Position numbers and translations under genes: made by a program. DNA of 64,000 bases from Bacteriovoracia bacterium. GTDB lineage: Bacteria; Bdellovibrionota; UBA1018; JBFWNL01. Numbering within the stretch: position 1 is the first letter of the stretch; the number at the start of each line of letters is the position of its first letter. A model generated the notes under the pieces. The model did no database searches and was not told the DNA's origin. It worked only from the letters and a program-made list of their open reading frames with translations. Shown in pieces: positions 40,090 through 42,304 of this stretch. The stretch is from the NCBI GenBank assembly GCA_050251055.1, contig JBFWNL010000010.1, forward strand, positions 65,833-129,832, written 5' to 3'.

Positions 40090-40250
40090 CGATATTCTCC
40101 TTTGACCTGATGACTAGGGTCTAAAACAGAATTATGCCGTGAGTTTCCAATAGATACAATGAACAGGTGCAGTTCCTTTTGTTAGTTAACCCAAGGCGTC
40201 ATAATGATTCGATTGTTTTCTTTCAGATTCGGCCTTAGCCTGGGCCGGCT

Positions 40251-40532
40251 ATGCGTCGTTGGATCAACGGTATTCTCATCGCCACTTGCCTGCTGCAAGC
40301 ATTGGCGTTGCCCCGACATCTCGTCGAGCACGCATTCTCGGTCGGAGGGGCCGTCGATGCTCCTTGCGAAACATGCAGGGTGTATAGCCACCAAGCTGCG
40401 GAAGCCGTACCGGTTCTCGCTTCCCTCCTCCGCCCCGATGTGATTTCCGTCAATCGATTGACGCCTCCGGCGCGTGTTTGCGCGCGGGGGTTCGCCCACG
40501 CCGATGCTCGCGCGCCCCCGTTTTCCGCTTAG
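40251..40532 (+). CDS. DUF2946/CruR/CutF-like leader protein with CxxC and RAPP arrest motif
   Basis: Hydrophobic N-terminus, HLVEH, CETC, Pro-rich spacer, ARAPP three codons before stop; directly upstream of an OM barrel gene. Confidence 0.8.
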   Translation: MRRWINGILIATCLLQALALPRHLVEHAFSVGGAVDAPCETCRVYSHQAAEAVPVLASLLRPDVISVNRLTPPARVCARGFAHADARAPPFSA

Positions 40533-41718: not shown

Positions 41719-41766
41719 GCCTTTTTATCGAAACGCAGTTAAACCCAAAACCGAAGGAAAGAAGAA

Positions 41767-42246
41767 ATGAAAAGAACCTGGATGATTTGCCACCTCGCCA
41801 CGGCGCTCGTTGTCTCCGCGGGAGCGGCGCGTACGCAGGCCCATGACGAAACCAAGGAGAAGGAAGAACATGCGGCCTGGCAGCAGGAACATGAAAAGTG
41901 GGAAGCGGAGCATGCCGCCTGGGAAAAAGAACATCAACGGGCCCAAGCGGCCGTGCGGCGGTTTCAATCCCTCACCCAAGGCCACGGCAAGGCTTTGCGG
42001 AAGCACGACGCCGAGATTCGCCGACATGCGAAGTTCATCCGCGAACATGAAACGGCATTAGCCGCCGGCCAAGGCTCCGAAAAAGGGGAAAAGCAGCGCG
42101 ACCAGCGGCACGCCAAAGATCAGGCGGAACATGATCGCTTCCGAGAAAGTCATGCGGCCTCCTCTAAACGCCACGCTGAATACATGGGTGTGATTGAGCA
42201 AATAGAACGCCTAAACCAAGCCCCGGTGGATAGCCACGCGGAGTAG
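41767..42246 (+). CDS. Secreted His-heptad helical protein (putative metal binder)
   Basis: Signal peptide ending TQA|H; His at 35/42/49/56, 73/80/87/94, 115/122/129/136. Confidence 0.82.
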   Translation: MKRTWMICHLATALVVSAGAARTQAHDETKEKEEHAAWQQEHEKWEAEHAAWEKEHQRAQAAVRRFQSLTQGHGKALRKHDAEIRRHAKFIREHETALAAGQGSEKGEKQRDQRHAKDQAEHDRFRESHAASSKRHAEYMGVIEQIERLNQAPVDSHAE

Positions 42247-42253
42247 CGGTCGC

Positions 42254-42291
42254 AAAAAAAAAGCCCCGGTGGAAATTCTCCACCGGGGCTT
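42254..42291 (-). terminator. Rho-independent terminator of rplM-rpsI (may also act on the + strand)
   Basis: A9-GCCCCGGTGGA-AATTC-TCCACCGGGGC. Confidence 0.92.
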
Positions 42292-42304
42292 CGTACAAAA
42301 GCGA

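Follow-up and report, generated by a model that had tools for sequence, protein, structure and literature searches.

What could be the role of a small, apparently secreted protein that carries a regular ladder of histidines and is encoded directly behind a porin gene? This question is raised by the ORF at 41767..42246 (plus strand) of the window, the stretch of 64,000 nucleotides from a Bacteriovoracia bacterium contig (JBFWNL010000010.1) that we analyzed. The ORF encodes a protein of 159 amino acids (P0001, the His-ladder protein) and is the sole long frame at the site, the others being shadows of another frame. A Shine-Dalgarno-like GAAGGAA (41753..41759, plus strand) lies 7 nt 5' of the ATG, and a GC-rich hairpin with a 15 bp stem (42260..42292), which has a T-run on the minus strand, is found 3' of the stop codon, between the convergent His-ladder and rpsI genes.

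P0001 has histidines at positions 9, 26, 35, 42, 49, 56, 73, 80, 87, 94, 115, 122, 129, 136, and 157. Twelve of these form the ladder at i+7 spacing, arranged in run 1 (H35/42/49/56; 41869..41934), run 2 (H73/80/87/94; 41983..42048), and run 3 (H115/122/129/136; 42109..42174), all on the plus strand. In the mature protein (residues 26-159; 41842..42246 on the plus strand, including the stop codon), which contains 14 histidines, nine pairs are spaced by seven residues and none by 1-6, 8, or 10-13 residues. Nine such pairs were not reached in any of 100,000 shuffles, the shuffle maximum being eight. Runs 2 and 3 share a single heptad phase with H157; run 1 is set in a different phase, and its heptads read H-x-x-W-x-x-E three times (W38/45/52; E41/48/55). 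The ORF, its three runs of four histidines, and the tryptophan-containing heptads of run 1 were found exactly as the initial annotation had described them.

The N-terminus, judged by eye, consists of MKR, a hydrophobic stretch, and TQA|HD. We infer from this sequence that residues 1-25 (41767..41841, plus strand) form a signal peptide that is cleaved at TQA|HD, and the A-H-D junction is present in five of the eight sequences closest to P0001. The first residue of the mature protein may be a histidine, and the single cysteine of P0001 is located in the signal peptide.

The His-ladder gene is a real gene of an unannotated family. An exhaustive HMMER search with P0001 retrieved 76 cluster representatives at E≤1e-3 (15 at E≤1e-10), with the best homolog sharing 44% identity (E 4e-28). 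We aligned 71 of the 76, leaving out a low-complexity false match (P0044), two sequences with an odd insert (P0018 and P0020), and two fragments (P0053 and P0067). Comparison of P0001 with Pfam and NCBIfam gave nothing usable, none of the 22 Pfam families listed for the 71 members (E≤0.01) is common to them, and source names describe the members as hypothetical or generic coiled-coil proteins. A word-index search returned only P0001 itself when queried with that protein, and 45 proteins when queried with the family alignment. The one named record in a cluster look-up is a hypothetical protein from Stieleria mannarensis; the protein-atlas cluster closest to P0001 has no name (score 0.93), and the atlas entries for structures are generic. 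Within the phylum, the family is sporadic, occurring in 11 of 401 sampled genomes. By a crude test, an N-terminal hydrophobic segment is present in 26 of the 71 members, including all six that carry the full set of 12 histidines. In two longer members (P0050 and P0060, ~260 amino acids), an N-terminal extension matches DUF1451, a 'zinc-ribbon containing domain' (best E 2.9e-13).

Conservation of the histidines among homologs, a check named in the initial annotation, bears out the ladder: 11 of its 12 positions are conserved in the alignment. Run 3 contains the best-conserved histidines, with H115 retained in 67, H122 in 64, and both H129 and H136 in 63 of the 71 homologs. In run 2, histidine is present at H73 in 52, at H80 in 58, at H87 in 56, and at H94 in 57 members; the corresponding numbers for run 1 are 62 (H35), 56 (H42), 18 (H49), and 45 (H56). 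The variable position is H49, which is isoleucine (24 members) or valine in most of the family, so that one of the layers considered below would often be His2. The tryptophans of run 1 are similarly retained (W38 in 57, W45 in 67, and W52 in 62 of 71), and positions 41, 48, and 55 are occupied by glutamate or aspartate in 60-64 of the 71 sequences. Since the query itself is rich in histidine, the matches are biased towards this residue; the His and Trp columns are the best conserved of the alignment despite this bias. Among the eight closest sequences, nine of the 12 ladder histidines are invariant.

How would such a ladder fold? The AlphaFold2 model of P0001, built from the 71-row alignment (pLDDT 86.9), comprises a long helix of 72 residues (28-99) followed by a return helix (105-151). 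Because the long helix is continuous, runs 1 and 2 lie on one helix, in its N-terminal and C-terminal half, respectively, and the GQGSEKG segment between runs 2 and 3 (residues 101-107; 42067..42087, plus strand) marks the sole predicted turn (loop residues 100-104), in keeping with the Gly-rich turn noted at the outset. In heptad notation, positions a and d are taken by His and Trp in the first half of the long helix, and by Leu/Ile (L77/I84/I91/L98 around run 2) and His in the second half; in the return helix, position a is His and position d is mostly hydrophobic.

When two copies of residues 27-155 were predicted together, the pair reached an ipSAE of 0.76, with the best control at 0.00; in calibration, the ipSAE mark was attained by 20 of the 30 proteins solved as one-chain pairs and by one of the 23 solved as single chains. 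At least 96% of contacts coincide between runs, and the partner pLDDT is at least 88. We note that the dimer score could in part reflect the model's memory of solved His-zipper dimers. The two chains are predicted to form an antiparallel, swapped homodimer, in which the dyad lies near residue 65, residue i of one long helix meets partner residues near 129-i, and each return helix has the same direction as the N-terminal half of the partner's long helix. The inter-chain contacts include 56'-73, 63'-66, 59'-70, 136-56', 136-W52', 129-W45', 122-W38', and 143-59'/62'/63'. This predicted contact list suggests three-His layers rather than a two-helix zipper and is consistent with four His3 layers per three-helix bundle. 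Monomer and oligomer prediction had been proposed in the initial annotation as a way to see whether the histidines converge, and all 12 ladder histidines indeed appear in the predicted helix-helix interface. The His-lined core that it envisaged is likely, as far as prediction goes, and the chain is predicted to form an antiparallel swapped homodimer, not a three-helix monomer or a parallel trimer. Searches with the monomer model gave no Foldseek match at E≤0.001, and VIA wide and VIA returned generic helical hairpins only (Z≤8.6, below the noise level for helical models).

A His-lined bundle has precedent, most closely in the histidine-zipper coiled coils, which are His-rich alpha-helical hairpins that form antiparallel homodimers with histidines at the intra- and/or inter-chain interfaces; the members described by Hartmann and Lupas in CASP14 come from Methylobacter tundripaludum (T1087), Nitrosococcus oceani (T1083), and Meiothermus silvanus (T1084), and the first structure was that of fungal Dld1 (PDB 5LOS; Nostadt 2020, as cited in PMC8616854). 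The known members share 15-23% identity, HHpred links them inconsistently, and with regard to function, the authors "only speculate", proposing metal ion scavenging (PMC8616854). P0001 resembles them in its repetitive histidines (12 at i+7, conserved in the family) and, by prediction, in its alpha-helical hairpin and its antiparallel homodimer with histidines at the interface. It differs in being longer, with an extra N-terminal H-x-x-W-x-x-E half-helix that adds a predicted third helix, and in having predicted three-His layers and a Trp ladder, whereas the known members form a two-helix zipper. In searches against PDB sequences at E≤10, neither Dld1 (5LOS) nor the CASP14 chains appear among the best 60 of the 65 matches of the family profile or the two matches of the mature protein. 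The initial annotation had also drawn a parallel to copper storage proteins. Csp1 and Csp3 are Cys-lined four-helix bundles that bind Cu(I) through one kind of ligand at regular spacing; this likeness holds as an analogy only, as P0001 has no Cys-lined core, no DUF326-type match, and a predicted hairpin dimer.

Clues to function come from the genomic context. The His-ladder gene starts 48 nt 3' of a gene for a porin-like outer-membrane beta-barrel of 373 amino acids (P0002; 40597..41718, plus strand), whose AlphaFold2 model (pLDDT 88.4) is an all-beta barrel that Foldseek relates to general porins (E about 1e-9, TM 0.5-0.6). P0002 has 746 homologs at E≤1e-5, all unannotated or hypothetical, the named ones being from Bdellovibrionota. 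Nine of 41 relatives have the family, and this genome has two copies, P0002 and its paralog, the porin encoded ahead of ZnuA-ZnuB at another site. At all nine other loci (L031-L039), including this second copy, a ZnuA homolog is encoded directly 3' of the porin (tblastn E≤5e-40), and the ZnuA homolog of this genome lies at 780314-781252 of contig C1; in the window, the His-ladder gene occupies ZnuA's place. The Pfam ZnuA model matched all four porin-linked proteins tested, and an ABC-3 permease follows ZnuA in L039, the one locus tested by Pfam. In NCBIfam, the zinc binding protein AztC ranks first, below its cut-off, for two of the porin-linked binding proteins, and zinc- and manganese-type matches to these ZnuA-type proteins are all far below cut-offs. 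In Bdellovibrionota, zinc (or manganese) may cross the outer membrane through this porin family. The porins share invariant histidines (H144, H146, H368, and H371) and a conserved C-terminal ...GAHPAHAY.

Upstream of the porin gene, a small ORF (40251..40532, plus strand) encodes 93 amino acids with a hydrophobic N-terminal segment, HLVEH and CETC motifs, and a C-terminal ...ARAPPFSA; this putative gene, which has no match in Pfam or NCBIfam, is possibly the first of the operon. Similar small ORFs ending in RAPP motifs are found 5' of the porin-ZnuA operons in L033, L034, L035, and L039, and may represent the counterpart of the small membrane protein ZrgD. The small upstream ORFs at these loci (L033 2671-3111, L034 2632-2970, L035 1053-1373, and L039 2860-3246) have a hydrophobic N-terminus as well as His and Cys motifs.

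Homologs of the His-ladder gene in other genomes are also found near zinc importers. The Zur-regulated importer zrgABCDE has ZrgA as its zinc-binding protein, and its component ZrgE corresponds to DUF3299 (PMC9820375, PMC9817125). In G031, whose homolog is 44% identical, the gene order is Fur-family, three DUF3299, ZrgA (E 4.8e-40), ABC ATPase, and FtsX/MacB permease, followed after 34 nt by the His-ladder gene; in G272, it is ZrgA, His-ladder, DUF3299, ABC ATPase, and permease, and in G178, ZrgA is followed by the His-ladder gene. The homologs of G178 (L025 6146-6586) and G272 (L028 6063-6494) lie directly 3' of zrgA and encode proteins that start with a lipoprotein-type signal peptide (..LSC) and are rich in His in their N- and C-terminal tails. 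In G009, the His-ladder gene stands between a DsrE-like gene and genes for a membrane protein and a ZIP transporter (E 2.7e-33), and in G335, it has DsrE and thioredoxin genes beside it. Overall, homologs are located beside zinc importers at 4 of the 10 loci of the phylum outside this genome, and no metal genes are found at five: by Pfam in G247, G216, G008, and G326, and by ORF map only in G208 (L029, a weak match). A gene for 332 amino acids 5' of the G326 homolog, considered as a possible porin relative, is unrelated to the porin.

ZrgA is present in 94 and the His-ladder gene in 11 of the 401 genomes; three have both, and in all three the genes are clustered together. Because 91 of the 94 ZrgA genomes have no His-ladder gene, the His-ladder protein is dispensable for the Zrg system. 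The ZrgA (PF10986) and DUF3299 models do not match P0001, these families being neighbours of the homologs. In the genome studied here, ZrgA and DUF3299 genes were not found, and the Fur and ZIP proteins of a relative had no tblastn match.

Several further features of these neighbourhoods may be recorded. The zrg cluster of G031 (L020 823-3379) contains three DUF3299 (ZrgE-like) paralogs together with a gene for an M14 zinc carboxypeptidase, and adjoins a Fur-family regulator with a 100-residue N-terminal extension. In two genera (L026 and L027), the His-ladder gene is accompanied by genes for a secreted DsrE-like protein and for a membrane protein of 177 amino acids without a family assignment. 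In Planctomycetota, where loci were located with a single-protein query (P0054), the homologs without a signal peptide are encoded among ABC1 kinase, Usp, Hsp20, FMN reductase, and FtsH genes, with no zinc genes. Rhodopirellula-like genomes carry the His-ladder gene beside ABC1 kinase, Usp, FMN reductase, and Hsp20 genes, and Stieleria beside FtsH (L043-L048); one Planctomycetota contig has two signal-less copies ~14.5 kb apart (L041 and L042).

The porin/ZnuA, zrgA/DUF3299/ABC, and ZIP neighbours favour a helper function in the uptake of zinc. Weighing against it are the five loci with no metal genes, the DsrE and thioredoxin neighbours in G335, the stress-gene surroundings of the signal-less homologs in Planctomycetota, the lack of ZrgA and DUF3299 genes in this genome, the zinc- and manganese-type matches of the ZnuA-type proteins below cut-offs, and the lack of an established Zur box. 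In the reading that we prefer, and to which we would assign about an even chance of being correct, the protein is a dimeric coiled coil of the periplasm that would bind Zn2+ in its His3(+carboxylate) layers and would serve zinc uptake by buffering or chaperoning the metal on its way from the porin to the importers; here metal binding, the preference for zinc, and the buffer or chaperone role are all inferred. The protein would be secreted, all-helical, about 15 kDa in size, and of the same kind as the histidine zippers. The half-helix of run 1 (H35-H56), with its Trp ladder, would pack onto the hairpin of the other chain, so that the swapped dimer would consist of two three-helix bundles and a central four-helix joining segment. 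Every second core layer would then be made of three histidines (35'/94/115, 42'/87/122, 49'/80/129, and 56'/73/136), alternating with Trp/Leu/Ile layers and flanked by conserved Glu/Asp. Such His3(+carboxylate) layers might bind a divalent metal, most likely Zn2+, at up to eight sites per dimer, and zinc that has entered through the porin, whose gene would be co-transcribed, could be taken up and held, or passed to binding proteins of the ZnuA/ZrgA type.

Known periplasmic zinc helpers, namely the His-rich loops of ZnuA and ZrgA, ZinT, and AztD, bind through histidines in disordered loops or on beta folds. Like them, the His-ladder protein would provide accessory zinc binding near an ABC importer, with an unrelated fold. 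The His-rich segments of ZnuA/ZrgA-type proteins add low-affinity zinc sites (PMC9820375). What is new is the genomic link of the His-ladder family to zinc uptake: a link to zinc-importer operons is absent from the histidine-zipper passages of PMC8616854, and a literature search conducted mostly outside subscription journals returned nothing that describes the family or places a His-lined coiled coil in operons for zinc import. This link to Znu-, Zrg-, and ZIP-type importers provides a direct, testable hypothesis for the His-lined coiled-coil fold class, and should the stacked His3 layers bind metal, the protein would offer a compact scaffold for metal binding and a natural example on which metallo-coiled coils with several sites could be modelled.

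A more far-reaching version, which we consider doubtful, holds that eight mononuclear His3(+Glu) sites are stacked in the dimer, that zinc triggers folding or dimerization, and that the protein is a periplasmic reservoir or relay from porin to importer, representing a new class of zinc storage proteins or chaperones. We know of no bacteria with a dedicated periplasmic zinc store. Designed His3 coiled coils (the TRI and alpha3D series) are man-made and have one site each, whereas P0001 is natural and has four consecutive predicted His3 layers per bundle. In the designs, three histidines take the place of a hydrophobic layer in the core of three helices (PMC13262294), as they are predicted to do here. 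Were the eight-site version true, the His-ladder protein would be a natural counterpart of these designs, possibly hydrolytic.

Unlikely, in our assessment, is a role as a general sponge in the periplasm, of the kind proposed for SmbP, ZraP, or SilE, which would bind any soft or borderline metal at hand, guard against copper, nickel, zinc, or cadmium in excess, and take no part in uptake. The high histidine content, the secretion, and a mature N-terminus that may start with histidine would suit a sponge, and a P-type ATPase gene adjoins the His-ladder gene of G031 on the opposite strand. SmbP is a monomer. As a small, all-helical protein of the periplasm, it is rich in histidines set in heptad-like repeats, as in P0001, and binds a number of divalent ions, including Cu(II) and Ni(II), but it has four helices and, in the printed piece of its sequence, histidines at i, i+3/4, and i+7 (PMC12955753). 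Against the sponge, the conserved partners of the family are importers (ZnuA-type, ZrgA-type, and ZIP), with no efflux pumps or resistance regulators, and P0001 has no match to the corresponding families. The SMBP model (PF16785) does not match P0001 at E≤1 or any protein of the whole genome at E≤10, and gave one chance-level match (E 0.0098) among the 71 family members; likewise, Spy/CpxP/ZraP (LTXXQ) is absent from the 22 families listed for these members at E≤0.01, and P0001 itself has no match to it.

Less probable again is a pH- or stress-responsive coiled coil, in which a buried histidine network would keep the dimer together at neutral pH and open on protonation, and the protein would be a switch or chaperone-like, with no function as a metalloprotein. 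The best matches of the family profile to PDB sequences are designed helical proteins, including the filaments DpHF7 (8ub3, E 5.6e-4) and DpHF18 as well as pRO-2.3, some of which we take to be pH-responsive His-network designs, and the cytoplasmic homologs stand beside Usp, Hsp20, FtsH, and ABC1 kinase genes. However, these matches are weak and driven by heptad composition; designed three-helix bundles are also matched weakly (6ds9, E 0.0018; 2a3d, E 0.02). A switch of this kind would, moreover, leave the placement within zinc-importer operons unexplained, and the Glu/Asp next to each histidine and the His-rich tails of the lipoprotein homologs fit metal ligation better. Finally, a cofactor bundle, for example with bis-His haem, or a His3-metal site with catalytic activity like that of a carbonic anhydrase, esterase, or nitrite reductase is very improbable: designed His3 three-stranded coiled coils do serve as carbonic-anhydrase analogues (PMC13262294), and haem might in principle be ligated by pairs of histidines from antiparallel helices, but the seven-residue spacing (about 10 A) is too tight for a haem in every layer of a three-helix core, the prediction shows no substrate pocket, haem or redox genes are absent nearby, and four identical layers suggest capacity over a single active site.

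If the His-ladder protein is a buffer or chaperone of zinc uptake, as we prefer to read it, might its gene be under zinc-responsive control? A hunt for a Zur box found no shared operator among the upstream regions, and no Zur box was established; this genome has two Fur-family genes, neither assignable as Zur. Of the read sets listed for the locus, none is RNA, and the two DNA sets probably come from the source sample. The pattern TGTTANTNAACC occurs in three copies in the genome, one inside a gene and two upstream of the two paralogous porin operons (window about 40180-40191, C10:106012; and C1:782997); as the pattern was derived from those two sites, it is only a lead towards a shared operator. 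In relatives, a perfect 7-1-7 palindrome, TGCAAAC-T-GTTTGCA, and TTGCAA/TTGCAT repeats are found upstream of a porin-ZnuA operon and of a DUF3299 gene (L038 about 1260-1320, L032 about 1420-1445, and L020 about 2230-2260), and could represent a Fur-family (Zur) box.
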